Shown: positions 3,001-42,390 of the stretch, in pieces | Numbering within the stretch: position 1 is the stretch's first letter | How the letters are laid out: each line of letters begins with the position of its first letter | DNA from: Raillietiella orientalis | Taxonomy: Eukaryota | Assembly: GCA_036172245.1 (NCBI GenBank) | Contig: JAYWIR010000037.1 | Coordinates: 2,108,001-2,172,000, forward strand | DNA length: 64,000 nt | Reading direction: 5' to 3' | Translations under genes and position numbers: made by a program | Notes under the pieces: generated by a model | What the model was told of the DNA's origin: nothing | The model's input: only the letters and a program-made list of their open reading frames with translations | The model's database searches: none

Positions 3001-5779
3001 GAAAAAGTGGTCTCCGTTCTCCAAAGATGGCTCCCCTACGGGCTGCGAAAAGAACGAGTTTCTTTTCGTAACGGAAATAAAATGATGCATGTGATCGAAT
3101 CTGTGGCAGCTCGTGGTTTCCATCGAGGTTCCCTCGCATCCAGAGGTAAAAGACATTAACGTACTTTGGTTCTTAGGTGCTCGCGAGATAATGAGTGCGG
3201 CGGTCCTCGTTTGAAGCTCCGTTTCACCCACATTTCGTTCCTGTTCGATTTGTTCAATCACTCGAGAGCAGTATGCCTGCAGCTCGTTCATGAAAGGTTA
3301 GTGGAACCACGAAGCAATGAAAACTGCGTCTTCTTTAAGTGAGCGCGCGTACACTGGTCATGCCCAAGAGGAAAACATTTAAATTTTATCGAGCACAAGC
3401 AGCACAACCATTAGATGAAAAGCAACGTGGAATGCTTATTGTATAAAGAACATATTATTGTATCAGATCCTTCCTTATTCCTTCTCGCATGCAAATGCAT
3501 ATCTGTACAATTAAGTAGGTGTATCATTCAAACAGCATAATGTCTGTTGTCAGCGATGGCGCGTTGTTTCCTTTCTGGACAGAAAAGATCTTCTGGCTAG
3601 AAGAACATGGAAGAGCAGCGACTACTGTCATTTTGGTTTTCATGATCCACATTCATTATTGTACAGTATACGTGTTTTCCCGCATTGCATTTCGTACACA
3701 CATTGCGAATTCAGTGTTTGCGTGAGAGATTTTGACACAGCTTTTGGTTCGGTTGCATTCAAGAGCTCTTCGATGAGACTGCAGAAATTCACTGTCAGCT
3801 AACACAGCAGAAAGAAATGCAAAGAACAAAAATACACAAAAATGAAATGAAGGGTACCGGAGATATGGGTAAGCAACGGAGGAAGACAGGCTGCTGCATC
3901 ACGAGGTTTCCTGTGCAATTTGAAGGAGTCACGCATATAGGATTGAGTCAACCTAAAGACGAAAATCTGGAATCTCGAGTTTTACTATTCCTTCTTTTTT
4001 GGTGCGCTAAGATGCTCAAGAACTGTTCGCCTCCTCAGGGACTGCCAACGCCACCAGAGAGTGCGCGTAAACCAGTTAGGGGGGAAACACCGTCCATTCC
4101 TAGCCTCGACTTCTGTACGACTAGGACCCCGCATGGGTCGCACAAGAAAAAGCAAGAAGTTTCTTGCGTTTTCTTCTTTTCTTTCTTTGAAAGAACAAAG
4201 GTTTCTGGAATCGCATGCATTGGTGTCTCTCCATGGTCGAGGAACAGGTCGACATACTGAAACTTCCTATCTGAGAGATCGAAGAACAAATCACAGGAGA
4301 TATAGCAGCCTTTTGTTGGGAAAGCACTGAATCGCTCAGAAAATACAAGTTAGAAGCAAAAACACTCGTAGAGTGTTTCTTTGGCCGAGGAAGATCAAAG
4401 CGGAGATGGGAGCTCGCAGCTGAGGATGCGATCCTGAAGACTTATCAGAGACTTTCACATCCCTTATTCTTTGAAGACCAGGGTCTCCCACAAAGTTTGA
4501 CAAGTACGATTCCACACATGGGGCATGTGAGCAAATATGAGTAAAACTGTCTTCAGAAAACTGAAGAAAGTCGATGTGCAGCCACAGGGGAGCGATACCC
4601 TCCCTCGTCGTCTAGAATTGCTGGTTCCACTCATATGAGAGGATAGTGATGTCTGATACTTGTCAATAGCTGTTGACACGGCTGCGCCAAGCTTCAACTG
4701 AGCTTCTGTAGAATCCATTACAGTAAGTGACCAGTCCCATGCACGCTTTAAATGATACTCTAGATGCATCTGCAAGTTTTCCATACCCAATTAATGGTAA
4801 GAATGCGTGGTAGATTACGTGCTAGAAGTAGTTTGTAGTTTGTAGTGTAGAGAGTAGTTTGTAGCACAACCATCAGATCAGCAATATGCTGAGCTACGTT
4901 GCCAAAGGCGCATGTAAAACAGCTAGCAGTTGTTGCCATGGTAACTGGCTCATGATGATGATGAGGTTCTGCGACTAATCCTGTAGCTGTTCTTCTTAAT
5001 GACCCATTATCAAGATATACTAAATTACTATTTCCTGAAGTTTCCATACTCTCGTCAAAGACCTGACCGTCCATCTCTAGTTTTTGGGTTTTCTCACAAA
5101 AAGGATTTCACAATAACTGGAAGAAGAAAAAAAAAAAAGCACAATTAGAGAGTATGCATAAGTGGATCATTCCGAAGACATTGAAAAATCATTTATTTAT
5201 GATTCCTGGTCTTTTCCTTTTTTACGGATTTTTCGTTCCTGTGCTCCATTATGAACGTGGAAAACTTATCGGACTTGGAAGGACCAGACAAGAGCCCAAG
5301 AAAGGAAAAATCGTTCGAAGTTTGGAGGAACATACAAATCTTCTCTTTATAAAATGTGGTATGAATATACAAATCAACACCCACACACGTAAACAGGGCG
5401 TGCACCACGAAGTTGAGGATTCAGGACTGTTTAACAAGCTCGTGAGAACCATCTCGCGTGATGAGCTTCCGTGTGTCATGAAGACCGCTAAGAAATATCA
5501 TTATTACAATGTTGAAGGGAAACAGTTGAGCAATAATGATGATTATTGTCAACTTGATTGGGTATGATAGCAATCGCCTTTCTAGCATGTTTTTTGGTGC
5601 TGAAATTATAATGGACTGAGTGATAGCGGAGGCTGGAAATATCGAGCAGAGGCATTTCTGATCGTAGCTGCCGCTATCATGTTCCAGATTGTTTCTGCTC
5701 TGGATATCTGAAACCACCTTCGTTCATCGGACTTGTTCGTCCTTTTCTGGAGTTCGATTTGAGTTTCGATTACTGCTGG

Positions 5780-6480
5780 TCTTCTTGGGGTGTCCAAGGT
5801 TCACATCTAGCAGATGGCGCATTCTGGATTGAGAAGCATTTAGTGGGGGAAAGTCATGTCCTGAGGGGAACTGAGCACGGCTTCAGACACTTCTTTGGAT
5901 GAGTGGAGATACCAGCTCCTATCCTCCAGCTTCCGTTTTACATACACGCTGCACTCGTCCCAATCCTCCCCAGATACATGGTACAATAAGAAAATGAGGA
6001 GCAGAAAGCAAGATCGCTTCTGCAGATGGTGTGAAAAGAAGGATGATCAGTGTTTGCGGTATCCTTCCGCATACACTGATCCATCACTCTCTTCATTCCA
6101 TCTAACGCCACCATGGAGTTGAACAGATTGAAGGAACAGCCGGAGGACAATGGAACTGGTTTTCCCCCGATTCCTGACTTGCATTCTCACCTTTGTCCTG
6201 ATTTGATGATTCAGAAGGACAAGCGGGAGGTCATTCTGGATGTCATCTGCCCTTATGAAAATACGGAGGCGGTGCTCGGTCTTCGACGAGGAAGAGTCTG
6301 GATATCAAGGATTAGCTCTCCTTTTGTTCTCCCCCGGACTATAGGCCTCTATGAAAGCTATTGCGGTGGGGTCTTGGCGGTCATGGAGCCCAAAAATGAT
6401 AATGTGCTCCAATTTTTAAAGTCCCCACGCCATTTGTGCATAGAATGTGAAGATCGATGGCTCATACTAACATGCAATAA
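5780..6480 (+). mobile_element. Degenerate non-LTR retrotransposon 3' end with restriction-like endonuclease (NeSL/Utopia/R2-group-like)
   Basis: Motifs in order across shifted frames: GKVMS (~5847), IHAALVPILP (cf. FIHRARLNLLP), CRWC zinc-knuckle start, RHHGV (cf. RHNAI), PDLMIQKDKREVILDVICPYEN (PD..D REL motif), then AATAAA near 6475. Stops and frameshifts present; boundaries approximate. Confidence 0.7.
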
Positions 6481-7264
6481 AGGAGGGACATCTGCGATCG
6501 GTTCGGTCGTTCTCCAGATAGGCAACCGGGATAAGTTCCCGAAATTCGACACCTCAACTGATGGAAGCTGTACCGTCTGGATACAAAGGCCGATGATGGA
6601 AGAGACAGCACCTCGAGTCAGCCAATGCGAGGCGCCACCTCTCCTCCAAACAGTGAACCGTGACGCTGCATCGACCTGATTGAAAAGATGGTGAGGCTCT
6701 CCCTCGAATTGCGTATCCACCTTCTTCCATGAGTTTCCGCCGGGATCTCCTTCAGCGTTCAAAAAGACCCGCATCGCTATGATGCCTGTTGCTCTTCCTA
6801 GCAGTGATCCGCTGAAGCTCATCTACTGCCTGTGCACACGGCAAAAAAAGAAAACACGCAAGATGCTGGTCCTTTCATACACTGCAAGTGGCTCCATTCA
6901 TGTTTAAAACGTGCTGCACTTTGCCTGTCCATCTTCTCAGGTAAGAACATTACTTGATATGTTCACTTGGCGATTCACCCTCGCCCTTAAGAAAACTCTA
7001 TAAGGGAGGAGTCCTGCTCGCACCCACCAGAATCCATGTAGAATCAAGCAAATGTAAGCTCGTCAACCTGATCGGGAATCTTTATGCTTCGATCTGTCCA
7101 GACTCTCACCTGAGGTGCACAAATAGTATGCAAAATGCTTATCACTAAGGAAGAAGAACGTTAGTGATGATGAAAGGTTCCAGTTGCATGTTCCGTTTAT
7201 CGTCCATTTTTGTTTATCCTCATTAAGCTTGGAAGATTCTTAGATTGTCGTCCGGTTGCTCCGG

Positions 7265-8550
7265 GGTGTTTATTTGAAACAATAAACATACAAGAAAGAA
7301 AATAAAAGAAGCAATGGGGGGAACATTTCGGGTCCCTGCCACGCTGAAATGTATTTGGAACCCGTCCGTCGAGATGCCGGCATGCAGACCGGCGACGTCC
7401 GCCTTGGCAACAGAGGAAAGAGAGACAAGCAAAATAAAAATAATTAAATAAGTTCAAAAACCTTTAGGTGGGGGCTCGGAAAGGGATCACTGTCTGTTGT
7501 CCGGCGCCTCCTGCATCCTTTCAAGCATGCCGGCAAGTTCCTCCTGCGTGGCTCCCAGGTGGGGCCTCTTGTTGTTCTCGTCAGGAAGCAGATCGAAGAG
7601 GATGGCGTCCCTATCGTTCCGGCCTTTTACGACGGCGATCCGGGCCGCCACGTTCCCGAGAAGGCAGCAAACGGCTGCTAACGATGCGTCTAGCGGTGAC
7701 ATCACGCACGATCCGGAGGGCCGTGGTGCAAGACGACCCCAAATGGGTCAGAGGATAACTCAGTCCACAAGCGGGTTCGAAAACGACTCTCGTTCTGCTC
7801 ACCTACAGCAGCTCAGGATTACACTTCTCATGTTGCAGTGATGCGGGCAAGCGTTGCTTAAAAGACCCCAGTGCAACGTCAGCAACGCCGACCCCTGCTA
7901 CTTGAGGGGAAGGATGCTACTGCCCAAGAACACCACGGTCATCACCAGATTCATTCACCACGGTCATCACGGTCATTCTGGTGGGATTTTTCAGGAACTG
8001 GATCCAGAGAATTAGTTTCTTTGGTGGGTCTGTTGGAGCCGCAGCGTATGTGAGCTGGCCCCTGGTCTAGCCACCAGGGAGATTCTGAGATGGCAATAAG
8101 TTGCGAATTCGGAGACTGGAATGATTCTCCCCATCTCTCCGAAACGCCTACTCAGGAAGAGTATTTCCAGATTATCCAGAACGAGTATCGCGTTCAAGCC
8201 AAGAGATTGTTTCTCCAAGCAGTGGTGATCAAGGCGTTGAGGGATAAATAAGAGAACTCTTGAAATCTGCTTCGGAACCTTCGAGAACAAATAGGAAGGA
8301 AAATCGTAAATCGAGAATGAGGAGAAATCTCGGAGATGAAAAGAACTTAATGACACGCTGAACATTGCGGAGGCTGGAGCCCGGTGCAGGAGAGATGCGA
8401 GAGATGAACACGAGATGGTGCAGAAGTGTCAACGATTTCTTTGGAGCTGAGACGGTTTTTAAAGAAACGAGAATACACGCACACTGAAGTGCAAATAGGT
8501 CGAAGAAGTAAGGATGTAGGAAATAAGGATTCCTCGTCTTCAAAAGGGTC
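7265..8550 (-). mobile_element. Second degenerate NeSL/Utopia-like REL retroelement (RT thumb to REL to 3' UTR)
   Basis: Minus-strand fragments ISPAPG..VIKFFSSPRF (cf. LAPWQK..FLFPRL), KQISRVLLFIPQRLDHH..LGL (cf. LYLPQRA..GLG) and IAVVKGRNDRDAILFDLLPDENNK (cf. PDIV..ILDVTCPFEN). Minus-strand AATAAA at ~7269-7274. GC-richer than flanks. Confidence 0.6.
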
Positions 8551-11500
8551 TGATTTCCTTATTATTTAGGTTGGGAGAAGTTACGGAACCGAAGGAGGAG
8601 GTTAACTGCTTCTTTAAAAAAGGAACGAACACTTCAGACGAACGACCACAGAGCAACTGTGTTTTTCCAAGCAGTTATCAGGACACCGAGACAACAGATG
8701 GATGTTGTTGGTGTGGGAAACGAATCTGTTGTTACCCAGGAACTCCGGATATTGGGCTACGGGCATAGGGAGCATATGCTAAGTGAGATGACCCACGCAT
8801 TAGCTACCTTCTCATACAGTTCCCGTTGCACGCGGCAAGTCGATTTTGCCGATTTCTGAGCTGAACCTCTTCCGATTGTTCCAGCTGGGCACCAGATTAC
8901 GAGGTTCTCCAATAACGCGTCAATGCTTCGTTATCAGTCGGTGAAAGCATCTCGTACCTGTCGAGGGTGCTAAGCTTTCCTTACAAGCAGAGCCATCTGT
9001 TAACAGCCAGCAAAAGCACTCTCACTGCTACCAGCATCACCTAAAAGTAGCCAGTTAGCTCAGGCTAGCTATGTTCTCCAGTCTGGTGATGCTGCCGTGT
9101 GTTTACTCTGTTTGCCCGAAAGAAAACTGGTTATGACCGCGTCGCGCGAGGTCATTAATTATTCCTCCTTACCACTATTACGATGAAAAGCATCCCGCTA
9201 GGTATCAAGTTCGAAATCCATCATGCGGTATTCCTATGTGTTGTCATCACGCGAACTCATCGCATGGGAACTCATGACTTTATTTTTGCACACGAGAATG
9301 CTGCATGCAAGAGGCGAAGACACATGTTTCCCCCCTCCAGAGCGTGAGCACACTCACGAGCCGTGTCAATTGCTTGCTCGTTCAAATTCCTTTGTGGATT
9401 TGTGCTAGGCAAAGCACGCAAATGGAATCTTCAGCGGGTCACCAATTGGCCTTTGTCTCTCGGTGGAGAAAATTCGCTTCATCATTTCTGCTCGTTCTTT
9501 TTTCCTCCCTTTTTTGTTCTCTCCCTGTTCTAATTTTTTCTCAATTAGGCCAAGAGTTTCACATCAGTGAGTCTCAGGCCATTAGCTGCACCTTCTTGGC
9601 ACATCCTCTTGAGCTTGTATTCGAATCATAGCTAACAAGCAGCTGCTAGGTGGAACTTGTTTAGACTCATTCGACTTGCTACGCCCTCTAGCCAGGGTTT
9701 CGACCTCCGGCCGAAAACCAAAGGAGAAACAAACAGGAACTACTGGACTATTTACAGGGCAGAAGTCTTACACTTGGACTCGAAAGACTTGAAACGTTCC
9801 TTCTGAGGCGGCATATGTTTCGTGTTCTTGCTTCGCCTCGACTGACTCATTTCCATTTGCATTCAGTTCCGGATCTCCTGAATTGTCTGGAGACACCTGG
9901 AAGACAACACGCTTTACCAAATATTTCTGAGCATTAATGCCAGATTCAGCCAACAGCCTGCTTATGTTTCCCTACTTTCTGAGCTCATCCCTGAGCTGTC
10001 CCCCCTAACTTGGGATCCAAACTGGTGAAGTTTCTAAGATTCCTTAGTCTTTTTATAAATTCATTGCTTGACTTTTGCATAGTCCGGCTATTCGAGCCAT
10101 TCGATGGCTTGCTGAACGACTATTAGCACAGCAAATCAGTCCACCATAGACACAGACTGTGGTCCTTTTCCTACCTCCATTATAAGCTCCTGATCTCGTT
10201 CGAATAGAATAGTCACCATCCTTGTCTGTTTTCGTCCCTCTTTCCTCTTTCAGGCTCCAAGACTGGAATGTAATGTTCGTCTGGCAGTCAGAACTTCATC
10301 TTAAAGGAGAATTCAAATAAGATTTCTTGGGGAAACACTCGAAAAAGTAAAATGGAGGAAAAAGAACGGAATCGCTTCAAAACATCATCAGAGACGCTAC
10401 ATTCCACACTCTTTTATCAATCCTTTTATAACTCGAAGTATTGATGTCAGCAGTTTATGGCACTCTACAAGGGAATATTTCCTCTTGACTCTTAAATATG
10501 TATGTATGTATGCATTCGTGTATTATATACGTATGTATATATGTATATAGTCAAATGCATGTTTTTTTTTTTTTTCCTCTTCTAAGCTGTAGGCGTCCTG
10601 CTATTCTTTAAGACCTTAATCCCCCTTGATAGCGTATTAGTTATGACTGAGGATTTTGCTTCGATAGACCCTTCTTTTCTTCCATTTTGGATTTCGCTAT
10701 TGAGAAATAGGTCTATCCGGCTGCTTTTTGCCGTCTGCGGGAGGCTCTTTTGTCAGTTAGAGTTTCTCGGCTGTTGATTCAGAGAAAGCTTTTCTTTTTC
10801 ACCAGCAAGCACACTGTCATGCAACACCCACAGTTCCACTGAAGAATTTCGTTTAATCTTCAGAACGAATCTCACACCAACAGGATGAGCATCACACTCG
10901 GCATGACCGCACATCGGCTCAAGACTTCCGTCGTTTCTCCCGCGTTCAGCTCCTCCGGGCTGTACTCAACGCAAGGTCAAGTATGCAGCATTCATGCCTT
11001 CATCTCCTGAGACAGGTGCAGTGGAACGCATGAATCTCGGCCATTTCAACGCGGTGCTGCACAGACTGTCTCCTCGGACGTTTCGTTTGGAATGTTTGTC
11101 CACCCTCTCCGCTGACTATGAACTCCCGGCGGAGATGAACTGAGTGGGTTCAAATAAAGCCACGTGGTCTCATCGGGTATTCTCCGTTACTGCATTTCTC
11201 CATAGGAACTGACATTTTCATTCAAATCCGCCTACCGAATTTCCATGCATGCAAAGTTCCGACAGTCTGCCTAATAAGCCGTACGTAGGGGAAATATTCT
11301 TCGGAAAATTAATGGAGTCATTGAGAATTTCGCTCAGATGAAGTGGGATGTTGCTTCCTGCTGATGTCGAAGACTTTCTAAGAACAGTATTGATAGAAAT
11401 GTATGTAGAAATAAATTTTTTCTTGAACCATGCAATAAGTACAAATGAATGTGTAAAAATGAATGAACTCCTTGGGGAGAAATGCTCCTCTCCAACATAT

Positions 11501-14500
11501 AAAAAATTGGTATGTATTTGGTAATAAAAAAAGCACCTCGGATAGGAAACGAACGGAAATGTTATGCCCCCACGGAATTCTCATGCTGTAAATCGAACGC
11601 TGGTAGCAAGGTGCACTCTCATCAGGACACCCCGAATGATGAATGGGAGGGGCACAATCGTGGTGTTTGTCGTAATCTTGCACTTTCATAATGAGTATCG
11701 AGCACAAAACACGAATCCCAGTCAAATGCTTTTAGTGACCAAACGCTGCATTCAAATCTCGAGCAAGGTCATCTGATTGAAAATTAGAGCTTTCGGGATC
11801 AATTTCTTTTCAATTACAATTCTTATAAACCATGAATCAATCCATCAATACTGACTTGATAATTACTGACACATCATCATGCAGGCACTCCTATTGCTTT
11901 ACCGAATGAATCGGAAACGAAATCCTTGAAATGCCTTAGACTGAACTGATGCGTGCTGATGACAATTTTTTTCCGATTTCTAATTTCTTTCCTAAAGGAC
12001 TTGAAACCAGAGGATAGCAGGACTTTTTTCCTTGTAAAAAGCTGGAAATTAGGCGATCTACATACTGACAGTTTTTCGTTCTTATATAGCAATAATGGTA
12101 CATCGGGAATCTGTTTTACAGTCATCAATGTAAAAATACTATGGAATTCAGTGTCATCACCTTTCAGTTTGCTTCTCCTTGAGAAGTGTGATACTGTTCT
12201 CTATAAAAACTCCGAAAAGCAAAAGTTCCAGATTTTTTCATTTGTTATTACCTTCAAAAGATATCAATTTATGGGAAAAATTGAGACAAGCTGTGTCTTC
12301 TTGCTACAAATTATGTTCACTTCCAGAATGTGTAGTTTAAACAAATGAAGCTGATTTCAGAATTTAGTCGTGGAAATTTCTAATAATCTACTTCAATCTG
12401 AAATCCGTTGAGAATTCAATAGAAACTTCAAAGACATCCACTTTCCATTCCGCATCCACTTTCGAGCCAAAGACGAAATCTATACCTATCGTAACCAGAA
12501 GTAATGCTTCTCTTTTCGACATCTCATGCCTTCTGCATTAGCTGTCGTCGTTAAAAGAATGCGTCATTCTTTCGGCTGCTGTAACAACATACATTAGTCA
12601 ACATTAAATGAAGAGAATTGCTTCTTCCATATAATGCAAAAGTATCGACGAAAGAATTAGATTCAGGAAATTTTTTGAAATTACTGATTACTATTTCTAT
12701 TACTAACATACAGTTCCTTGTTCATGCTTAGCACATATTGAACTCAAGGCATTCGAATCAGACTCCTGCAATTCTCGTGGCGGTTGTGATCACCGGAAAA
12801 AAAACAGAACTTTTATAAGGCTTAGAAGTTATAAATTATTGTTTATTATTAAATCATAGCATTATTATAATAATAAATCTTGGCATGAAGTTTGCTATCA
12901 AAATGATGAATCTCTATAGCTATTGAATATGGGCATATTTTTCAAGGAAAAAAAAAAAAAAAGTGCACATAGAATTATTTGTATTATAATGACTGTAATT
13001 AATCAGTTGCTTTCCTTTTGCTTTCTCTTTTTCTCCTTCTAATCCTGAAACTTCCAGATCCCTTCCTGAGACATTGGGCTTCATTCTTATGACTCCGATT
13101 TCTGAGTTTGTAATTACTAGGTACTTGATTTTTTTCTCTTACATCTTCTTTGATAGTCCTCAAAGAACCAGCCTGATTTACAAAGGAGGTTTGATAACAT
13201 ACTGTTATCGAATCTCCTTTCTGCTCCTACCAGACTTTTTAACTGAATTCCTTTTCTCTTTGACTCTTTGATTTTATCTGACTTATTCAAATAATTAGAC
13301 TTGGATTTTTTATACTTCGTAGATATGAGAGAATAATCTTCTATTTTTAATTCCCTTTAAATTTCTAAATCTTCACTTTAGCATTTTCATGAAAATTATT
13401 TGTATACATTATTCTTCCGAATCCTTTTCTTCTGTGTTTTCATTCATGTTCATCATATGGTTGAATTTGCACGCTCTTTTGCGAATGAGATGCTTAGTAA
13501 AATATTCAGTTTAACAAACAATGATTGAATAAATGGGGCATGTGGATTTTTACTCTCTTTCCTATAATTCTTTCGATATGTTGAGGAAGAGGTCATTCAT
13601 AAAAAACCTACAGAATTGATTAAATGGCCTGGCAACTCAAATTCCGTATAAAATATATTGATTTTGGTTGGTAACATAAATCATATAAATATTAAAATAA
13701 ATAAGTAGCTGCAATTCCTAGGTTTCATAGAGATTTGATGAGAATAAATGAAGTTTCATAAAAAATGAAAACAGGCAATAGACACGAAATTAAAAAGTAT
13801 TACTTATTTTCTCGAATGTGAAATCAACCTTTTCTGTTAATTCAAATTCATTTTACTTATTGACATCTTCTTACAACATTCTTTGAGAGCAAATCTTGTG
13901 TTTTTAAGGTCGTCGATGCTGAGAGAGTTTAATTTAACATTTCTCCATTGGACCTGGAAATACATTTTTAATCTAGCATGAGAACATATCTTGAGAAGTA
14001 TTCAACAATGCGGGACTGGCCTTAGAAAAATCTTAGAAAATCACCACAAAGATGGTAAATTTGTTAACTAAAAAGATATTCATTTGACATGTAGTGTGGT
14101 ACTATTGAGGAGCGAACACGGATTTTGTGAATTTGGAAACAGTGGACAATCTTTCTACTTTCAGATAAAGCTTTTTAACATGGATTTTACTTTTTACTAG
14201 ATGTTTGAAAAAGCAGAAGACTATATACAGTTTTTCAAGATTCGATTTCAGATATATTACAATTTGAGAAGACAACTTACAGAATGAACTCTTCTTCCAC
14301 AAGTAATGTCGTTTAAACTCTTTCAACAGCTTATAGAATCGTGCACAGATGATGAATATGTATAATTTTATATATTATATGCACTGTTTAACAAATTTCC
14401 TTAAGTCAAAGTAATCAATAGTGCTTAATTGTGGGCTTGGGTTCTCCAATTTCTCTCAGAAATGAGTCCTAGGTTATTTAGGATTGGATATCATCTAAAT

Positions 14501-17462: not shown

Positions 17463-17538
17463 ATGCTAGTTGCAAGTAATTTGCATTTTAATATGATCTG
17501 TGATTTATTGGATACTTTCAATAATTTTGTATTCAGCA

Positions 17539-17977
17539 TTAATCTGGCTCGTTTATTGCAGAAGAAATACCAGCTAATTTCAGTTGTTTGCTAAGTTCAC
17601 CACTTTGGTGCAGTTGTAAAAGAATGTCACAACCACCTATGAATTCACCATCAATGTATACTTGGGGGATGGTTGGCCATTTGCTGTATTCTTTGATTCC
17701 TATAATAGTAATAGTTAATCTTGGCAACAATAATTCAATAACAACCTTGCCGTAGTTCATCATTTTCTAAAACATTGTAACTCTGAAATTCCACATTATG
17801 CATACGTAAGATTTGCACAACTGCATTGCTGAAACCACACATAGGCTGATCAGGAATCCCTTTCATAAACACAACTACTTTATGATGATGTATCAGCTTA
17901 TCTAGATATTCTTTGTTTATTGTGCAAAGGAGCCTTTGATAGCATTTCCGTAAGCTACTGAGTTTTAATCTTATCAT
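17539..17977 (-). CDS. GLRX5: Mitochondrial monothiol glutaredoxin 5 (130 aa)
   Basis: Exons 17977-17746 and 17699-17539 with a 46-nt intron. Motifs VVFMKG, CGFS active site, [13 protein letters not shown]. Basic mitochondrial presequence-like N-terminus. Confidence 0.95.
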
Positions 17978-17986
17978 TACACTTAG

Positions 17987-18439
17987 TTAATCAGTGTACT
18001 CTTCTTCACTGGAAGAAAGGTATTTGAACAACCACTGATCATCCACCAACTAAAAAGGCATGCACAGAAACATTCGACCAAATAAGAACATGTAGGCTTA
18101 CGACTTGGGAATTCGAACTTTCCTCCTTTGTTCGTTCTGCAGTATGTAGTTTGTTTCCTAAATCTTCAATTGTTTCATGAAGTTTCGCTCTTGCTTCCAG
18201 TGCGTTATTTACCTAAGTGAAATTGTATCAGTATAATCGTAAAGCTACTGTGTCACTTAAAATGTACAAATATGCTTTTTCGATAACAAATTAAGTCAAG
18301 ATCAAGTTTTTACTTTCAGTATCTTGTAACAGCTACTATAAAACTCATCATTTGAGCTATGCAGTAAAACGTCAAAAATAGAACTCGTAATCCTTTCGTA
18401 GTAAAGTTTTCGACTTTCTATCGAATTTTTTTCATTCAT
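17987..18439 (-). CDS. Orphan 99-aa spliced protein with a coiled-coil-like middle, ending 9 nt upstream of the GLRX5 ATG
   Basis: Exons 18439-18314, 18212-18102, 18049-17987 with two phase-0 GT-AG introns (101 and 52 nt). Translation: MNEKNSIESRKLYYERITSSIFDVLLHSSNDEFYSSCYKILK-VNNALEARAKLHETIEDLGNKLHTAERTKEESSNSQV-LVDDQWLFKYLSSSEEEYTD*. Confidence 0.6.
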
Positions 18440-23819: not shown

Positions 23820-24250
23820 TCCGCCTTCCAGGGCCACTCTGCACGAATCGCATCAAGTCCTAAACCTTTGGCTGCATGTCATTAATTAGCGCAAGCACGA
23901 CCAACACTTCCGTCTCCATCGTCGCGCCTGGCAACAGCACCGTGCGGTGCACTCGCCGCAACCGAGACCTCCGAAGCGCCGAGTGCACACCCCGCACTGG
24001 CGCAGCTGCCCGCCTTGCAAGCGATGAGACGTCTCCCGTGGAGGTGATTTCACGGAAAACAGTTTGAGAAATCAGGGTTCCCTCACGCGTGCACCTGCGG
24101 GTTGCCATGCTACAACTCGTGCTCTTCGTGTTGTCTGCCCGCTTGATTCCTGATTTCTGTACACTGCATGTTCGAAAGAAGAGCTTGGAGGGGTGTGCAC
24201 GAAGACAAATGCATGTGGATATACAACGAGTATACACAGCATGCATGATG
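23820..24250. other. GC-rich multi-stem-loop element (candidate structured RNA or regulatory island)
   Basis: Nested inverted repeats cgtctc-catcg/cgatg-agacg, gtgcgg/ccgcac and gtgcactcg/cgagtgcac (23911-24031). Further stems ccgtgga/ttcacgg (24036-24055), agaaatcagg/cctgatttct (24067-24158) and atgcatg/catgcat (24209-24247). Confidence 0.45.
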
Positions 24251-24937
24251 AACCTCCATACCTCCTCGATCGATTCTGGTTAAAGCATTTTGAAATGAAA
24301 ATGAAAAGTGTGCAGTCAGTGTCCCCTTGTGATTTCACAAATTCCAATGGCGTCATTAAAAAAAATTCTTTTGCAGCAGGGACTAAGAGAAGTACTGCAG
24401 AACAGTGCCATTCTCACTCAGTATATGTGTGTAGACATGCGGATAGACATGTGTATCAGTATCTCTTCAGCATAACTATGGCCCAAACAAAACCTGTAGG
24501 AATGGAAGAAGAGACAAGATGACATAAAAAAAACCAAACATCTGAACCATATCTTCATTTGAAACTTCAATAAAACGTCATGAATCTATACTTTCTAAGT
24601 TCCCTTATAAAAAAGATTCAAGTGGCAGCAAACGCGTTTTCATTTTTTTTTTTTATTCCATATGCAAGCTATTGCCTAAAAACGAGTAAATGGCTTTTGA
24701 AATCATTTTAAGAAACTTTTGCATCTTTTCGTTTTTAGCTGAGCTTCCTAACAAAGCGGCATGATTAAACTTATGACACCGAAAATAATAAGTAAATAAT
24801 TGGGAACCGCTAAGTGTGAACCATCGAAAGATTTGGCCTTGGTTTCCATGACACCTCCGTACGGATTATTAAACTTTTAAATTTCAGATCAAATACCTTC
24901 TTTGTGTAGCACGACTAAAATCCAAAGGTTCCTGGAA

Positions 24938-25841
24938 ATGATTCCGAAATCCATTCGGTAGTGATCATGAGACTAATATTTAGATAACGACCTACGTCTT
25001 TGGATTAAATTTAGATTGATTGCAGCCACTTAAATCGCTCCAGGATGAGAGAAGAGCGGGAGAGAGAATGCAGTGATCCAAGTAAGTTCTATGGAAACTC
25101 TTAGTAAACGAACGAACGAACTTAGGTATGCCATACTCCACGGGAACGCTCGAAAACCTTGTGGAACAGCTTCATGGGATTTCGGTAAGTTTCCACAGAT
25201 CGACTGGATTTACAGAAAAAAACGATAATGCAGCTTTCCAAGATTTTGAAATTCCTTCTTTTTCCCCTCCCCCCAGAACAGTTCATCTATGCAAAGGGAA
25301 AATGAAGAGCTTAAAAAGCGGATATCACGGATGGTACAGATTTCGTTTATTGATATTTCTCCATTTCTCTATTCCTTAAAATAATTGGCAAACTGTTAAT
25401 TGTCCTTTTGTTTTTGATAGCCTTATGAGTGGGCCGAGCGTAGGACACCTCTAGAAGACAAAATTAACGCCATCAGAGCTGATCTGAGAGGTATTTGAAG
25501 AAGTCGCTTCTTTTACGCATACTTTAACATTCAGATGCAGTGAATGAAGAAATAAAACTCATTTCAGTATATAATTCCGTTTTGTAGATGTGGAAAAGGA
25601 AATTAGAGAAATGCAAGAACAAGTGGAAATGGAAAAAAAGCAATATGAAGAGCGCAATCAAGAATATCAGAGACTTCTAGACGAACAAAGACGTCTTCAG
25701 TCAGAAATTAAAGCATACAGAGAAAAATCAAGGCGAATTCAAAAGCAGTTTCGTTTAGTAGGCCGTAAAATGGGGAATGACGCTGTTCTAATGGATGGGT
25801 TAGTTCCTTTATACTCTGTACACCTGAATTGTATCGCTTAA
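24938..25841 (+). CDS. Orphan coiled-coil protein (~171 aa, start uncertain)
   Basis: Exons 24938-24957, 25026-25081, 25126-25184, 25277-25333, 25421-25490, 25588-25841, all phase consistent. An alternative in-frame acceptor lies at 25534. E/K/Q/R-rich heptads such as QRENEELKKRISRM and EKEIREMQEQVEMEKKQYEERNQEYQRLLDEQ. Confidence 0.65.
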
Positions 25842-26225
25842 CTCCAGAAGGCGAAATTGCGACGTTTCACAGAAGTTTCGCTGAATCTCTTGACTCTTAT
25901 TTCTTTGAAAATAAGCAACTCTTGTATGGAGAATGAGTTATGAGAAATGAGAGGTCCTCGGAAAAATACTCGGAAATCGGACTCATGTGGCCGTAAAAAA
26001 AATTGGGTGCTTCTGAGGCTCGTCACGCAATCATACGTGCGACTTCCTCTTAGAAACGATTATGGGAGTACGCGGTTTTAATGCCGACGGGAATCGCTTG
26101 TGTACAGTTTCACTGAACTACATCATTGTACATGTAGTGACGCACCATATAATTTGTTTGTATCCGCGTTCTTGTGTTTCATAACCCAAGTAACTTTGGG
26201 AAATTTGGGGCAATCAAGACTGGAA

Positions 26226-28701
26226 ATGAATCCATGGAAAGACTTCAAAAATGCTTTTAATCTTCCTAAAATTCCTCAAAATATGACTGTTAAAATTTCA
26301 CGGGAGCTGGGGTGAGCCCCATCCAAACCTGTCGTTTTATTCCAGGATCGAGGCGATGGAATATGGTCGCGGAGGAAATGCACGGTGTGGGCGTCTGTGC
26401 TGCATCTTGTATGATTGCATACTTAATTGCTTCAAAGGGATTGGACGTCTATTTCTTCTTCTGTTTACTTGTTTCGGAATCTTCAAGAAAGTTCCAGGAA
26501 CAAAGACAACTGGTGGATTCTTGTCGTATATTCCATGCTGCAGTAAACGTGCGATATGCCCCCTGCTGATTGTGTTTCTCCTATTTTTGCTTCTGTGGTA
26601 TCTGGGAATTATAATCTTCCAATGCAAGTATCCATTTCCTGGAGGATACCTTCCTGGAGCAGGTATGATTTTAAAATGCTACTTCATGAAGAAACTCTGG
26701 TAAAACGCGCAATGCCTTTAAAGAAAAAAGGAAAAAAATGGACTCACAATCAGGACTCGAAAGGAGCATTGATAGGAATTAAGCAGGTTTTTCCGTCACA
26801 GTGATTAACTGGATTTGAGTCTTGTTAGGTTTTTTTTTTTTTTTTTTTTTTCTTACTGGGAGCGTACCTTTTAATGGACATGTAGGAAGCAGTGGAAAGT
26901 GGCTATTAAACGAGCGGGTTCAGACAAAGGTACTAACACGAAGGTAGGGGTGTTGACGCTAAAATCAACAAGCTCTTGAAGTCTCCGAGAGATTCCTCAT
27001 TTTGCGTCGACCATATTCTTATCAGTTTTCCATTTGTCTTCATGGGTTCAAAAAGGAAGAATGACCAAATGTGGAGGAGTAAGAACTTCGAGAAAAGCTG
27101 CACCAAGAAGTCGCCGCTCCCGAGATAACGTAAAGCCATTTTATAATTAATCGAGTAAAGCATTCAAGATATGAGTGATCCGTAAGAGTATTACCATCAA
27201 AATGTTTCGAATTGAAAAGAGCATCTAGAAATGATCTGTAGTAGTTCAAAGTGTACTATCAAAGCGTAGAAGTGAAAGTAGCATCAGAAAGCATCTCATT
27301 CCTTGTAAGAAACTGTGATGGCTGAGAAATGCACAGAAGTCGCTTTTTGTTTAAAAAACGAAAAACACCATCCCCTACTCAGGAAAGAAAGAGTCGGAAC
27401 CACTGTTGGGCAGAAAATGACAGAATTCTGACCGGAGCTAAGCATTTCTTAAGGTGACAAAGAATCCAAAGTCCACCCGTTCACTGTACGCTGATACTTT
27501 CCCCCGTGCGGGGCTGTCGAACTCGCTTGTAGAGACTCTTCACTTGCAAAACTCTGAAACCGGGATTAAATGCAGCAGGTAGCAAGGGAATTTGAGGGCT
27601 TAGAATACCTTGAGAGCTATTGGAAAGTGTGGAGAGATCAGAATTATCCTTCCCTCCATCTTCAAGTTTCTTTGCTTTGAGATTTTGAAATCTCATCTAA
27701 AAGTTGTATTAGGTGTGTTGCCATCCCAATATCTTGTTGTCCATGGTTCTACTAATTCTCCTCTACTTCTCCTATCCATCTGTCCGAGATCCTAAGAGTT
27801 CGTTTTTTATCAAAGGGAGGTTTTTTCCGAGGTATTACCAGGTTCGTCTGTGAGAAGGGAGTGCGCAGCAGTAGCACCAGAATCTCAGAAGGAGCTTGAA
27901 ATCATGTGGACAGGTCAGGACATGGCCACATGATTTTTAAGCTCCTGCTTTACCCTCCTGAATTCCGTATCATATGATCCTCCACAGTTTGGTTTTCCCG
28001 CCCGGAGCTCGACTCCTATCCAGCCCCCAAACGAGCCAGCTCCATCCAACTTGATCGGCGTTCAGTTGCGTTGATCTGCCGTTTTCTCTCTTTGCCTCTG
28101 GCAGGCTCTCTTTTTTATCTGCGTTTGGAACCAGGTTGATTTTCTAGCGTCTTCGGATTCTTTTGCACCGAGTAAACCGATGTTCCCGACTCGTTTCGCC
28201 TCGTATGCCCCTCCCCCCTCCTTCTCTCCTCCCATACGAAAAAGGCGCAGTTACTGTCCTACGCAAGAAAGGGAAGCAATGGGGACGCGACTTACTAGCG
28301 CGATTATCCTTGCGCTCCGTCCTCCAAAACGGAGCGGAATCTTGGAAACTAGGGGCAACCACGTTATGTCGGAATTCCACCTTCTGAGGCTCACTGGTGC
28401 GCAGTGTCCACTTTCTTAAGGTTAGAGTCAGTCGAAATCTCAGCTGCCTTTCTTTCTCGCTCACACACACTCACTAGATTTCTCCTCTCTAGGTCCCAAA
28501 ATGCCTCCGCAGCTTGGTGCTGCACCTCCAGGAGTTCAAGCTCCTGGCATCTTGCCTCTTCCCGCACCAGGAGCACCTGGCAAGGCACCTCCTCCAGCAC
28601 CTGCTAAGGGTAAACTCCCGGCTAAGGTTCCTCCTGCCAAGAAAGGTGGAGCTCCGAAGTCCGGGGAGAAAGCTGGGAAGAAGAAAGGAGCGAGCAAGTG
28701 A
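26226..28701 (+). CDS. Orphan 203-aa Cys-rich membrane protein with Pro/Ala/Gly/Lys-rich tail
   Basis: Exons 26226-26311, 26346-26662, 28493-28701 (612 nt, phases 2 and 1 match). Hydrophobic segment PLLIVFLLFLLLWYLGIIIF, clustered Cys, and tail PKMPPQLGAAPPG...KAGKKKGASK*. Confidence 0.65.
26829..28420 (-). mobile_element. Probable decayed L1/Tx1-like retroelement inside intron 2 of the orphan membrane gene
   Basis: Poly(T) run of about 22 nt at 26829-26851 (poly(A) on minus). Weak APE-like remnants AFNPG and DALF..TDHSYL..SW. GC-rich 5' portion. Highly degenerate. Confidence 0.35.
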
Positions 28702-31569
28702 GCAAGATGCCGTCCGATGCCTTGCCATGGCAATGGAATCTGCCACTGCGAAATCATACCTTTCTTAGCTAATAGAGAAACCTCCTTCACGTGACACCCG
28801 AACCTCAGCACTGTAAAGAAAGCAACAAAAGAAAGGTTTTAAGAAAGACTGTAATTTCATTTGAAAACGTCCAAAAGATCAAGGATGTGAGACATATGTC
28901 ACTTTGCAACCTTCTCTTCAGAAAAGACTTCTATAAACCATTGAAATAATTCAGTGTTCAGCAATGATTTCAACAGTATTTTTTTTTTACAAACAGTCTG
29001 GGATTTTTACAGTCAGTGCTTCTTTCGCATCGGCAGGAACTCGGGAACGCGGGAAAAAGCAACCAGTTGAGCCTTCGACAGAGAGGTTGGTAGGTGGAAA
29101 CCTCGAAAGCACATACTGGTGTGTTCGGAGCGAAGAGAGCCAAGGAGTTCCCTCATAAGGCAAGAAGCACCGTCCCTGACAGTTTCGTGTGGCTGCAAAA
29201 GTCGCTTGTTCTGAAGTTGAGTGAGAGGATATCGAGGTCAGCTTGAGGTTCATTGAGTAGGAAAGCAGCTTCCGCCACATTCGTCCCAAGCCACTCGCAG
29301 CTCAAGAGCCAAGGAAGGGTCACATTTGCTCTTGGCCGCCGCTTGAAGGGATGGAGTTTCGTAAGTCAACTCGTGTGTTTGTTCCTGAGGAAGATTTCAT
29401 GCTGAAGAAGGAAACAAACTCCGATACGACTGATTATTCAGTTGATGTCTCTGGAATGAAGGGGGAGGATTTAAAACTTTTATGGCAGGTCGAGGAAGAT
29501 GACTGAGTTGGGAAAGAAGCTCTCAGAAACAGAAGGTGCGGCCTTTGCGGTCAAGGAAATGGACTGTCCCTTTACGGTCGTTTTTTCTGATGATTTTCTG
29601 GAGTCGGGTGGCCACAGAAATACCGTTCTGGTACAGGTGAGTCTGGGGAATGGAGGAGAGCGTGCACACAGTCAGCTGCAAGGACTCGGTGGTGCAGATC
29701 ACTGCGGTGGCTGCTGGAAGCAAAACTGATGCAACATTGCTCAAGATTCAAGGATGTTGCTCTGTGATCTCACTGTGAGAGCTTGAGATCACAGATTAAT
29801 AGCTAGCATTCTTGTGAGGTAGGAAAAGCACCGTTCAAGCACTCCCCGAATCCTGAAGCCAATTCTGGGGATCTTGAATCTAGCTGATTGTTTGAAGAGT
29901 TGCATAGAGGCAGCACAGGTACCCTGAGCTCCAGGATCAGAAAGTGAGGATTATTTTCAGGAAGGAAGCCTGGTTTACAATTTGAAGACCCTAGAAGGCG
30001 AAAGTTTCCAGTTTCTTCGAGATTCCAGAACTAGGTTAGGGAAAGGTTGGATCTTGTGGACTCTTAGTACGCTTGTGCTCTTTCTATACGATAAAATGCT
30101 TATCCGGGGGATCTTGAAAATGATTGTTCAATGACACTGTTGTATTCAATGCAGCATTTTCAGTGCTCTTGCTTTCGGAATTCCAGACGGGAAACATCTT
30201 TACGAAAACTAAATTGATAATTTCTATGAAAACTTGCTGTTCATTCAAATGATTTCTACACAAGTGAAAATTTGCATTAAGGCTTGGATGCTTCGATTTT
30301 CAGATACAAACAATCTCATGATTGTTCAATATAAGATCAGAAATCAGTTATCAGGAAGGAATCATCCATCAGGAAATAGAACAGGAAACTAGATTATTTC
30401 GAGAAATATGGGATCAATTATCAGAAAGAGACAAAGCTATTTGTTTACGTATTACCTTATTCACATTTACAGCTCTTGTACAACATCTTTCATTACATAA
30501 TGATCTCATATATACGCCGATATGAATGGGACAAATTTCAATAATTACGATAAGAAAGATGCTAAAGAATGAAAGACACCATCTTTTTATTTATGAATGC
30601 GTTTCAATAGAAAATGTCTGAGTAGATAAAAAGTTGTCAATCATTTAACCAAGTAGTTTGAGAATATACTTTATTTCCACATTTCTAAAACAATCTGTTT
30701 TCTGTTATTTCGCCCTTCTCTGTGTTCACAGATTCTGCAAAAGTTCATTTGCCAGTTTCTTATTTGAAGCAAAGTTCCTTTTTTTCTTGAATAGATGCAC
30801 GGATTTTCATATCAAACCACAGATTACACTGATGTATGTAGCTATAGATTCTTCCATCCGTATTCGTATATGTTTGCTCTTCTGTATTCAACGATTAATG
30901 ATTAACTATCTAAATATACTATGGTAGAATTTTCACGATGCCTCCGAAATCAGGTTTCTGCTGGATCCTGACTACTTTCAGGTTTCAACTTGCAGCTAAC
31001 AGTTGAACTCTAAAATCCTCTCTGGAAGTTTATTTGCACTTATCTTTACATTTTCATATGCACATCTGATTTCATGAATGTTTACATATGCTACTGCTAT
31101 GCTTAAAAAATCCAGAAGGTTAAAAATCTTTAAAATGCTTGTCTCACTATTTGAGTCAAGCAAGGAAAACCAAACTGAGAATGAATTCTTACTCCGCTAT
31201 TATTTTTTTCGATTGTACTATGAGTGACACTCATGATTTAGTTGAAATTAAGTGAAATAAAACTGGAACTACTGTTTCTGAAAGGCGATTTTTCCATACA
31301 TATTCTCTTGCTTTCTTCGGTGAATGTGGTTCACAGATTGTAGAATGACCACGAAAACTATACTTGGTACAAGGGTGATAGCAAAATAGTATCACTAAAT
31401 GGAAAGCAGAGTCTGAGCCAATTCACTATCGTGCTTCACAGTAAGCGGATGTTGAGGGTACAGAAAGAAAGTAGAGTCTCTTCCACTGTATTCAGTGACG
31501 TTGCCAATTCGGTGAACGTCTTGCCCCTCAGAGGGGCGGGCTGTGTCCCCACGAGTGTCAAAGCATTGG

Positions 31570-32100
31570 TACGATGCAACCGTTGACAGGAAGACTTCGT
31601 GCAGCTGATGTCAAACTGAAAGCTATCAGATGTTTAGGTCAGGAATTGCAGAAAACCGATTCGCTGCTTGCAACGAGAATTGCAGTTTCCTTCCTTATGT
31701 CTCACAAGCACCTCAAACTGTGGGAGATTAAAGATTTTTCAGGTGTTACAAGATTGGAAAGATCCCAATTTTGTTCTTCACAAGCTGAACGTTAGACAAG
31801 GGCAACACATCCTGAAACACATGATGTTCTCGGATGAAGCAATATCTGATATATGAGAAAGAATTAACCTTATGATATGGATGTACAAATATTGGATTCC
31901 GAACAATATGGTGTTTTACATCCAAATGCAGTTCCCATCTTAAAAACCTCTGTACTCCTGACTGCACAATAAAATCTTTCTCATTTATTCTAGCAACAGT
32001 GGTCGAGATCATATGCATAACCTTTCTAAAAATTTTGTGCTGCATCATAGTCTTTAGTTGCAAGTGACTATTTTGTTTAAGCAGGACAAGGAGCGTCTGA
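31570..32100 (+). mobile_element. Possible degenerate Tc1/mariner transposase fragment
   Basis: HILKHMMFSDEA resembles the first catalytic-Asp motif (IxFSDEA), preceded by RLERSQFC and followed by ..IN..YW. Frameshifts and stops present; no TIRs identified. Confidence 0.35.
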
Positions 32101-33373
32101 ATTAGTGTCTTTGCAATGTTTTTAATAGAGCATATTCCGACCGATAAGATTCTTGAGACCGCATCGCCATATTCCCGGATTCTAGATTTTCTCCTTTTTT
32201 TTTTCGTAAGGAAATATGGAAGACCATGTTCATATTACCTGTCATGAACATTCATGACGCACATCTCCATTTCCACGATCACATCAGAAGTAATTAAACC
32301 TATTTAAACGAGAATACATCATTATCTAAGGATACCCCAAGTATTCAAGGATATTCACCTGAAGATTCGAAGGAAGAACACATTTTGGTATTCCAATTCA
32401 AAAAAAGGGAGATGAAGCAGCTCACTAGTTAGAGCTCTTTCATATGGTGAAATTGTAGCGTGTACCATGTATGCTTTCAGGCGAAGAATTGGTAAGTCAT
32501 CGAAAAATAATTTGCACAAAACTGCAAGTAGATAGCAACAAACAAGTTTTTTCGAGAATAAATATTTTGCACTGATGCTGTTTCTAGATAAATTCTTTGT
32601 TGAGCAATATTTTGATAACAATATAAAAACTCTAATAAAGAGTAAAAATTAAAACGTTTAAAGAAATACGAGTATTCATAGCATATTCAGAAATCGATAT
32701 AGCATACTCATAGCATATCTTGAGTACAACTACGATGTTGTAGGCTAACAAACGAGCATTTTTGTTTTGATATCACTTAAATTTACGAATAAGTGTCAGA
32801 TGTATTCGCAAACATATTTGTGAATATTCCTGATAAATTATTTAAGGTACATTATTTTTATCATGATATATCGATGCATGTGTCCATGTTTTTAAGAAAT
32901 AAGGCAAGTATCGATGCACGTTCAAAAGATTAGTACTGAGTTTAGTGCAATAGCTTAGGCAGCAAAATTATTGTAATTTCCAAGTGCAGACATGTATTTC
33001 CATTACTTCAGATCCATATTTTAAATTTGAATTCTTTTTTACGTTGTATTCAAACAAATGATCCGTTCCATAAGTATTCAACCCACACAGAAAAATAAGA
33101 CCTTCTTACTTTTAGAAGAAAATAGATAAAATAGAAAATTAATTTGCTAAATTCACTTCTGATGCCATTTTTGAGTATGATTCAGGATTATCCACTTCAA
33201 ACATTCCTTTTAAAATTAACTTATGGTTTTTTAATAACTCATTTTGAAGCAGTATGAATTAAACCTTCGAGATGCTGCATATAAAATCAAATTATACCAC
33301 AATATAAAATATTAATGCATGTCTTGGTATGATGACGGATCTTTATAGCCTTTTACCTGTTCAATTACCACTA

Positions 33374-33384
33374 CTTTCCCTTTT
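33374..33384 (+). promoter_or_regulatory. 5' TOP / TCT-type polypyrimidine initiator of RPL13A
   Basis: cta-ctttccctttt about 80 nt upstream of the ATG. The same cta-ctttcc core precedes UBA52. Confidence 0.6.
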
Positions 33385-41739: not shown

Positions 41740-41754
41740 CTTTCCGTTTCCTTC
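41740..41754 (+). promoter_or_regulatory. 5' TOP / TCT initiator of UBA52
   Basis: cta-ctttccgtttccttc, followed by a probable 5'-UTR intron ending ttttag at 41929. Confidence 0.55.
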
Positions 41755-41895
41755 GCAGAAACGTACAGCGAGGCTGTCGCTTGTGGAGTGCTGGACGGCG
41801 TTTACATAAGGCTTTTTGTGTGAGTTGAGAATGAATGCTGGCGAATTGTGTATTCCATTGTAGAAATTGAAAACTGTATTTATGCAAACCTGTAA

Positions 41896-42339
<444 letters not shown>

Positions 42340-42390
42340 CTTTATTATCACATCATTAGTATGAATAAACAATGATTTACACTGATGTGA

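Follow-up and report, generated by a model that had tools for sequence, protein, structure and literature searches.

A spliced 99-codon reading frame abutting GLRX5 in Raillietiella orientalis: a candidate lineage-restricted gene in proposed tandem overlap with its neighbor

In humans, proteins translated from upstream open reading frames (ORFs) are known from MIEF1 (MIEF1-MP) and ASNSD1 (ASDURF), and the main ORF of MIEF1 encodes a mitochondrial protein. For Drosophila, FlyBase curates dicistronic and polycistronic transcripts, as described in the part of PMC4528330 available to us; the terms Grx5, CG14407, and glutaredoxin are absent from the 12 supplementary files of that paper that were searched. 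A different arrangement comes from Ciona, for which the available portion of PMC1488885 describes that in operons with mapped boundaries the upstream poly(A) site is at the same time the downstream acceptor, that 16 of 18 such operons carry no AATAAA within 40 nucleotides (nt), and that ribosomal-protein genes are mostly not trans-spliced. Here, we analyze a locus of Raillietiella orientalis in the light of these systems. The locus lies within a stretch of 64,000 nt (assembly GCA_036172245.1, contig JAYWIR010000037.1, positions 2,108,001 to 2,172,000; hereafter the window, in which all coordinates are counted), where a three-exon ORF of 99 codons, which we call ORF99, is found directly upstream of the glutaredoxin 5 gene GLRX5, on the minus strand. 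No described upstream gene of GLRX5 turned up among the papers listed in the literature searched, in which neither glutaredoxin nor GLRX5 is mentioned, and other papers may exist.

The reading that we tentatively favor is that ORF99 may be a real, lineage-restricted gene, which would form tandem overlapping transcription units with GLRX5. Taken on its own, the proposal that ORF99 is a real coding gene is likely, and the product would be a small acidic, probably helical protein. All features of the two genes are read on the minus strand. ORF99 starts with an ATG at 18439-18437 and, by translation, consists of exon 1 (18439-18314, 42 codons), a coiled-coil-like exon 2 (18212-18102, 37 codons), and exon 3 (18049-17990, 20 codons) followed by the stop codon TAA (17989-17987). 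The exons are separated by intron 1 (18313-18213, 101 nt, GTAAAA...CACTTAG) and intron 2 (18101-18050, 52 nt, GTAAGC...CCTTTTTAG); every exon junction is in phase 0, and the product has 99 amino acids. Since an in-frame TAA (18442-18440) is located immediately 5' of the ATG, no 5' extension of ORF99 is possible, and the frame holds no internal in-frame ATG. Position -3 is a T for the ATG of ORF99 and a G for that of GLRX5. Between the ORF99 stop and the GLRX5 ATG lies a 9-nt spacer, CTAAGTGTA (17986-17978), which keeps both ORFs in one frame with a single stop codon between them. An earlier note on this DNA had described a phase-consistent 99-residue ORF in three exons with its TAA reaching 17987, 9 nt before a GLRX5 ATG at 17977 on the same strand, and reading and translating the minus strand reproduced all of these coordinates.

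Several observations bear on whether such a structure could arise by chance. Briefly, frames from ATG to stop were assembled with no, one, or two GT-AG introns, and the longest was determined for 47,406 nt of control positions, in regions that included a real gene, RPL13A. With free choice of the GT-AG pairs, 7.2% of the control positions have the end of a spliced ORF of 99 or more codons no further than 30 nt upstream, and under strict rules (GTRA donors and pyrimidine-rich YAG acceptors), which were set after ORF99 had been seen, the figure falls to 0.13%. The homology-supported genes of the window provide 18 reference introns (within 16120-49250), 12 of them 41-55 nt long and 6 of them 90-278 nt long, with GTAAGT-like donors and T-rich YAG acceptors; the introns of ORF99 fit this set in size and sequence. 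For intron 1, the donor score is 3.9 (reference mean 5.9, minimum -0.1) and the length is within the 41-278 nt range, while intron 2 has a donor score of 4.3 and belongs to the 41-55 nt class. The content of aspartate plus glutamate in ORF99 is 0.19, a level that no more than 2 of 314 control ORFs attain. The exons were also compared one by one with the same controls: the values are 0.14 for exon 1 (top 3.2%), 0.19 for exon 2 (top 1.0%), and 0.30 for exon 3 (above all controls). The purine fraction is 0.586 in the exons and 0.451 in the proposed introns, the change occurring precisely where splicing is proposed. The content of guanine plus cytosine (GC) at the three codon positions follows the same pattern in ORF99 (0.42/0.30/0.33) and GLRX5 (0.50/0.28/0.31). 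The AT-rich parts of the window hold further strict-rule spliced ORFs of at least 90 codons that are unsupported (e.g., 20466-20124, 34403-34869, and 54604-55030), and these are, by eye, hydrophobic and poor in acidic residues.

The downstream gene is GLRX5, a housekeeping iron-sulfur (Fe-S) assembly factor. Its product, encoded in two exons, is a monothiol glutaredoxin 5 of 130 amino acids with the CGFS motif. Exon 1 (17977-17746, ATG at 17977-17975) encodes a presequence-like N-terminus and the CGFS site; a 46-nt intron (17745-17700, GTTGTT...TATTATAG) follows in phase 1 after the residues LRQG, and exon 2 (17699-17542) ends at the stop codon 17541-17539. Both exons match the Pfam family Glutaredoxin (PF00462) past the curated cut-off, with E-values of 9.1e-12 for exon 1 and 4.9e-6 for exon 2. 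A total of 362 relatives was found, those with a name being mitochondrial GLRX5 proteins of animals, and their alignment shows no variation at C47, G48, F49, and S50. Residues 1 to 20 have a basic character and include no acidic residue, and as the length of the N-terminus is close to that of the relatives, 17977 is taken as the true start. In 10 of 13 aligned relatives, all 10 being single ORFs, the similarity breaks off directly behind LRQG, as though an intron were present at the same place. The best identity of GLRX5, as well as that of FIG4 (see below), to any named animal is 64-70%. A canonical AATAAA at 17509-17504, 29 nt past the stop and placed as in UBA52, is the likely poly(A) signal of GLRX5.

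At the junction itself, the earlier note had pointed to an AG 4 nt before the GLRX5 ATG as a possible acceptor for trans-splicing. That AG is present at 17983-17982, so the proposed placement stands; as an acceptor it is poor, since it reads AAG and is preceded by a purine-rich run-up with few pyrimidines. A far better acceptor candidate is the pyrimidine-rich CAG at 18011-18009, which lies within the coding sequence of ORF99. These candidates were compared by reading the sequence, a 20-position acceptor matrix being over-fitted. The pyrimidine run and CAG together (18020-18009) fall within ORF99 codons 89-93 in exon 3, 31 nt before the GLRX5 ATG, and could serve GLRX5 as an initiator or as an acceptor. 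The run, CCTTTCTTCC, located 34-43 nt before the GLRX5 ATG, is similar to a motif, CTACTTTCC, found at two ribosomal-protein genes of the window (see below). The signal scan of the junction gave no poly(A) signal before the GLRX5 ATG. Inside GLRX5 exon 1, an ATTAAA (17969-17964) is located 18 nt past the ORF99 stop and 8 nt past the GLRX5 ATG, and an AATAAA (17921-17916) follows 66 nt past the ORF99 stop; an overlapping 3' end of ORF99 is therefore possible. The statement in the earlier note that no room is left for a 3' untranslated region (UTR) is right on one condition, namely that the upstream RNA has to terminate ahead of the GLRX5 ATG.

A spliced RNA running from the ORF99 ATG to the GLRX5 ATG would contain six ATGs ahead of the latter, and leaky scanning to GLRX5, as had been suggested, is therefore not credible. 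Five of the six are in the +1 frame. Each of the five +1-frame ATGs reads ATGA, probably a by-product of the many GAT and GAA codons of ORF99. The RNA around the junction (121 nt) folds no better than shuffled sequences (z -0.36, with 68 of 200 shuffles as good), and an Rfam scan of the junction region at E-values up to 1 gave no family except two chance-level matches to small nucleolar RNAs. One weak match, SNORD5-like (18357-18291, minus strand, 24.6 bits versus a gathering threshold of 55, E 0.31), spans the boundary of ORF99 exon 1 and intron 1; exon 1 also contains a C-box-like ATGATGA motif, and the match lies below threshold and is probably due to chance.

If ORF99 is real, the geometry forces one of three arrangements, all of them named in the earlier note: one RNA with two ORFs, trans-splicing, or transcription of GLRX5 from inside the ORF99 gene. 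In the reading that we favor, an RNA begun upstream of 18439 would lose its two introns and be translated into ORF99 only. Its 3' end would be formed at the ATTAAA or AATAAA within GLRX5 exon 1 or, alternatively, at the poly(A) site of GLRX5, in which case the RNA would be dicistronic in structure and monocistronic in use. For an ORF99 3' end of its own, the 18 nt from stop to ATTAAA compare with the 29 nt (GLRX5) and 25 nt (UBA52) from stop to AATAAA. The GLRX5 protein would come from a second, shorter RNA, whose separate capped 5' end would be located inside ORF99 exon 3, around the pyrimidine run 18020-18011, 31-43 nt before the ATG. Reinitiation in eukaryotes after 99 codons is generally inefficient, and given this, the six upstream ATGs, and the housekeeping role of the protein, it is almost certain that GLRX5 is served by an RNA that has a 5' end of its own; the 9-nt gap would then require that this end arise inside ORF99. 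Both the RNA ends and the translation described here are what we infer from signals in the DNA. That the genome tolerates overlap is evident from its close convergent gene pairs, and its use of conventional cap sites is indicated by the pyrimidine motif that the two ribosomal-protein genes share.

A number of points weigh against this reading. No TATA-like element is found before the proposed internal start of GLRX5, and the pyrimidine run can be read equally well as the tract of a 3' splice site with its CAG at 18011-18009. Transcripts of GLRX5 would have to pass over the ATTAAA located so shortly after the ATG; in retroviral long terminal repeats, a poly(A) signal is known to be suppressed when it is close to the cap. 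In a long-branch animal, spliced-leader trans-splicing may remain a candidate. ORF99 was without a homologue in any of our searches, so that conservation gives no backing to the gene model, and the strict splice rules were chosen with ORF99 already in view. Finally, the codon-usage likelihood was without power, with values of 0.022 for ORF99 and 0.001 for the held-out GLRX5, which 23% and 29% of the control ORFs, respectively, reach.

It is possible, if doubtful, that ORF99 is non-coding, being either a chance frame that combines with GT-AG pairs in the promoter or 5' leader of GLRX5 or a set of non-coding leader exons, with GLRX5 monocistronic. Such an explanation accounts for the lack of relatives with any tool, for the T at -3 of the ORF99 ATG, for a codon-usage score that does not discriminate, and for the unsupported strict-rule ORFs elsewhere in the AT-rich parts of the window, and it gains from the 7.2% rate under unrestricted GT-AG choice, as about nine genes in the window were there to be looked at. 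It is harder to reconcile with the low rate under strict rules, with an acidic content that so few controls match, that is extreme in each of the three exons separately, and that the other unsupported ORFs do not share by eye, or with a purine contrast that coincides with the proposed splice sites; as for non-coding leader exons, the six ATGs would cripple translation of a housekeeping protein. The main mechanistic rival is a spliced-leader operon of the Ciona type without intercistronic DNA, in which the primary transcript would be cut at the AG, the upstream RNA polyadenylated at that G, and a leader added to the GLRX5 RNA. We consider this unlikely. Most trans-splicing animal phyla are long-branched, and the FIG4 branch of this animal is the longest in its tree (0.63); the compact, AT-rich genome with minimal introns of 41-55 nt points in the same direction, and the locus agrees with Ciona in having no poly(A) signal ahead of the GLRX5 start codon, as do the ribosomal-protein genes with their conventional leaders, as far as the available portion of PMC1488885 goes. 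On the other hand, the AG at 17983-17982 is a weak AAG and its use would reduce the 3' UTR to 5 nt and the 5' UTR to 4 nt, whereas the good CAG at 18011-18009, 20 nt upstream of the ORF99 stop, would yield an ORF99 RNA without a stop codon. Moreover, there is no other tight same-strand gene pair in the window, where neither a spliced-leader RNA gene nor any other RNA family was matched.

A direct coupling of the two ORFs seems improbable, whether by a bicistronic RNA with reinitiation 9 nt after ORF99 or by a fusion that bypasses the TAA. The fusion would come about by readthrough, giving a protein of 233 amino acids, or, if 42 nt (17999-17958) were spliced out as an in-frame intron, would give one of 219 amino acids, and the putative mitochondrial presequence would end up buried or cut short. 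The 9-nt spacing and the shared frame are suggestive of coupling, although the latter has a one in three chance of occurring anyway. A C follows the stop, and TAA-C is a context permissive for readthrough, whereas TAA itself is the tightest of the stop codons. The 42-nt GT-AG interval has the minimal intron size typical of this genome and would link residue 95 of ORF99 with residue 8 of GLRX5 while keeping the frame; however, read by eye against the 18 reference sites, its donor, GTACAC, is poor (score -1.7, with 67% of background GT sites as good) and its acceptor region A-rich, and under strict splice rules no path leads to a fusion. Restart sites in caliciviruses are preceded by a structured or rRNA-complementary element, while the junction studied here has no unusual structure and no RNA family, and it is unlikely that an essential mitochondrial protein would depend on reinitiation after 99 codons. 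Animal RNAs with a small upstream protein are nonetheless known, including those curated by FlyBase (PMC4528330, in the part available). There is only a very slim chance that ORF99 and GLRX5 are a genuine two-protein unit tied in function, with ORF99 as a very diverged BolA-like or other Fe-S partner that has stayed beside its glutaredoxin, as in the bacterial bolA-grxD pairs, or as an alternative N-terminal module; in the latter case, readthrough of the TAA or loss of 17999-17958 would produce a second, non-mitochondrial isoform of glutaredoxin 5. At present, ORF99 is a candidate gene model, and the explanations that the locus admits are of the ordinary kind.

Relatives of ORF99 were sought at the level of proteins, families, and structures, using single exons as queries, a procedure that is weak for distant relatives. 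Among 5.8 billion proteins of the longer lengths, a word search with exon 1 returned 1 candidate and none that scored, and phmmer with the same exon gave 0 matches at E-values up to 0.001 against 1.84 billion representatives. In the Atlas, exon 1 yielded no usable match, and the clusters returned for exon 2 were all either unnamed or of a generic coiled-coil kind. When phmmer was run on the full set of PDB chain sequences at E-values up to 10, Diaphanous (E 0.66) was the sole match of exon 1, and exon 2 had none, and a Pfam scan of the ORF99 exons at E-values up to 1 gave no family above noise. A loose resemblance of the N-terminus to PMF1/Nnf1, proposed in the earlier note, did not hold up, as neither of these single-exon searches returned Nnf1 among the Pfam families or PMF1 among the PDB chains; PMF1 is about twice as long as the ORF99 product. 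No paralogue of ORF99 is present within the 64-kb window, and an exact look-up of five window proteins in the protein collection found none of them.

The surroundings of GLRX5 were also screened in metagenome contigs, from which 80 GLRX5-like loci were fetched, most of them bacterial as judged by their upstream genes. Nine loci were examined for synteny; three of them (L002, L003, and L006) end after LRQG or LRKG like exon 1 of animal GLRX5, and, by eye, no abutting ORF was seen in the 120 nt upstream. The best match to ORF99, at locus L001 (E 0.35), was rejected, since it is located 2.1 kb upstream of a GC-rich, vertebrate-like GLRX5 and its ORF looks non-coding. Weak tblastn matches of ORF99 (E 8-24) recurred at a constant place upstream of bacterial grxD, and the genes found there are those of BolA. 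Picked from the 80 loci were 22 such upstream ORFs, of which 4 were tested and all 4 are Pfam BolA. The idea that ORF99 itself is a BolA protein was nevertheless discarded: a local profile built from the 22 ORFs gives it 2.0 bits, which 107 of 2,000 shuffles reach, hhalign puts the probability at 0.9%, its score being reached by 16 of 200 shuffles, and the Pfam scan of the exons contains no BolA.

The wider window contains about nine genes, those recognized being a SAM_4-domain gene, GLRX5, calcineurin B, RPL13A, UBA52, FIG4, and a reverse-transcriptase element. Where the genes lie, the GC content is 31-36%, and GC-richer repeat blocks are found elsewhere; blocks of 40-58% at 1-12000, 24000-32000, 50000-55000, and 60000-64000 are without recognizable host genes. 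The reverse-transcriptase element, located in one of these blocks, is frameshifted, with RVT_1 in the minus-strand ORFs 52859-52128 and 52638-51457. The SAM_4-domain gene converges on GLRX5 with 76 nt from stop to stop (17463-17538), and FIG4 converges on UBA52 with 51 nt (42340-42390); the 3' UTRs of these convergent pairs must therefore overlap or nearly touch. Calcineurin B is encoded on the same strand as ORF99, 4.2 kb upstream of it. Its first exon contributes the Met codon only, as a 44-nt intron (to 23428) begins directly behind the ATG (23474-23472), and a pyrimidine tract of about 55 nt with a CAG is found some 190 nt upstream (about 23730-23660).

Upstream of conventional leaders, UBA52 (41737-41745, plus strand) and RPL13A (33371-33379, plus strand) carry the identical 9-mer CTACTTTCC. 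This element looks like a pyrimidine initiator of the terminal oligopyrimidine (TOP) or TCT type, and in combination with the conventional leaders it points to ordinary capped, pyrimidine-initiated transcripts for both ribosomal-protein genes. UBA52 has a non-coding first exon, an intron of 110 nt (41820-41929), its ATG at 41953, and an AATAAA 25 nt past the stop. Its ubiquitin part (41953-42180, plus strand) seems to differ at four positions from animal ubiquitin, which is nearly invariant. In a FIG4 tree of 28 rows, for which 27 of the 120 listed matches were used, the terminal branch of the window sequence is the longest (0.63, with a median of 0.09), and its placement is unsupported. The apparent top match of FIG4, a sequence labeled as a contaminant of a sturgeon record, was set aside as a FIG4 with an internal duplication. 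Short introns (12 of 18 measuring 41-55 nt), low GC content of the genes, and the long FIG4 branch mark this as a compact, fast-evolving animal genome.

Were the tandem overlap of ORF99 and GLRX5 to be confirmed, the locus would show in clean form how a small-protein gene that is spliced and specific to a lineage can sit tightly against a mitochondrial Fe-S gene that is essential. A coding exon of ORF99 would double as the promoter or leader of GLRX5, and the 3' end of ORF99 would lie inside the GLRX5 coding sequence. Loci of this kind show how compact animal genomes accommodate new genes, and they are regularly mis-annotated as 5' UTRs. There would be a value for annotation too, as none of the ORF99 exons and translations submitted to the protein collections is present there.

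Compared with known systems, the locus shares features with several. As in the bacterial bolA-grxD pairs, where the monothiol glutaredoxin gene is preceded, with little or no gap, by a gene of 75-90 codons, a small ORF precedes a glutaredoxin; unlike in those pairs, the upstream product is not detectably BolA. With the dicistronic loci of Drosophila and the human upstream-ORF loci, both from animals without trans-splicing, it has in common a small protein encoded directly upstream, on the same strand, at a very short inter-ORF distance, and, as for MIEF1, the main ORF encodes a mitochondrial protein. The difference from the Drosophila and human cases is that ORF99 is split by two introns and has no known relatives. 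The operons of Ciona intestinalis, as the available portion of PMC1488885 presents them, have their boundary between a normal 3' UTR and a 5' UTR, whereas the present locus has 9 nt from stop to start and a weak AG. The locus resembles those operons in its head-to-tail arrangement, the missing room for a separate promoter, the lack of an AATAAA before the boundary, the AG at the boundary, and the conventional ribosomal-protein genes. Small upstream genes that abut a main ORF, as well as operons without intercistronic DNA, are thus already known, and what would set ORF99 apart among them, if it is real, is that it is both spliced and an orphan.

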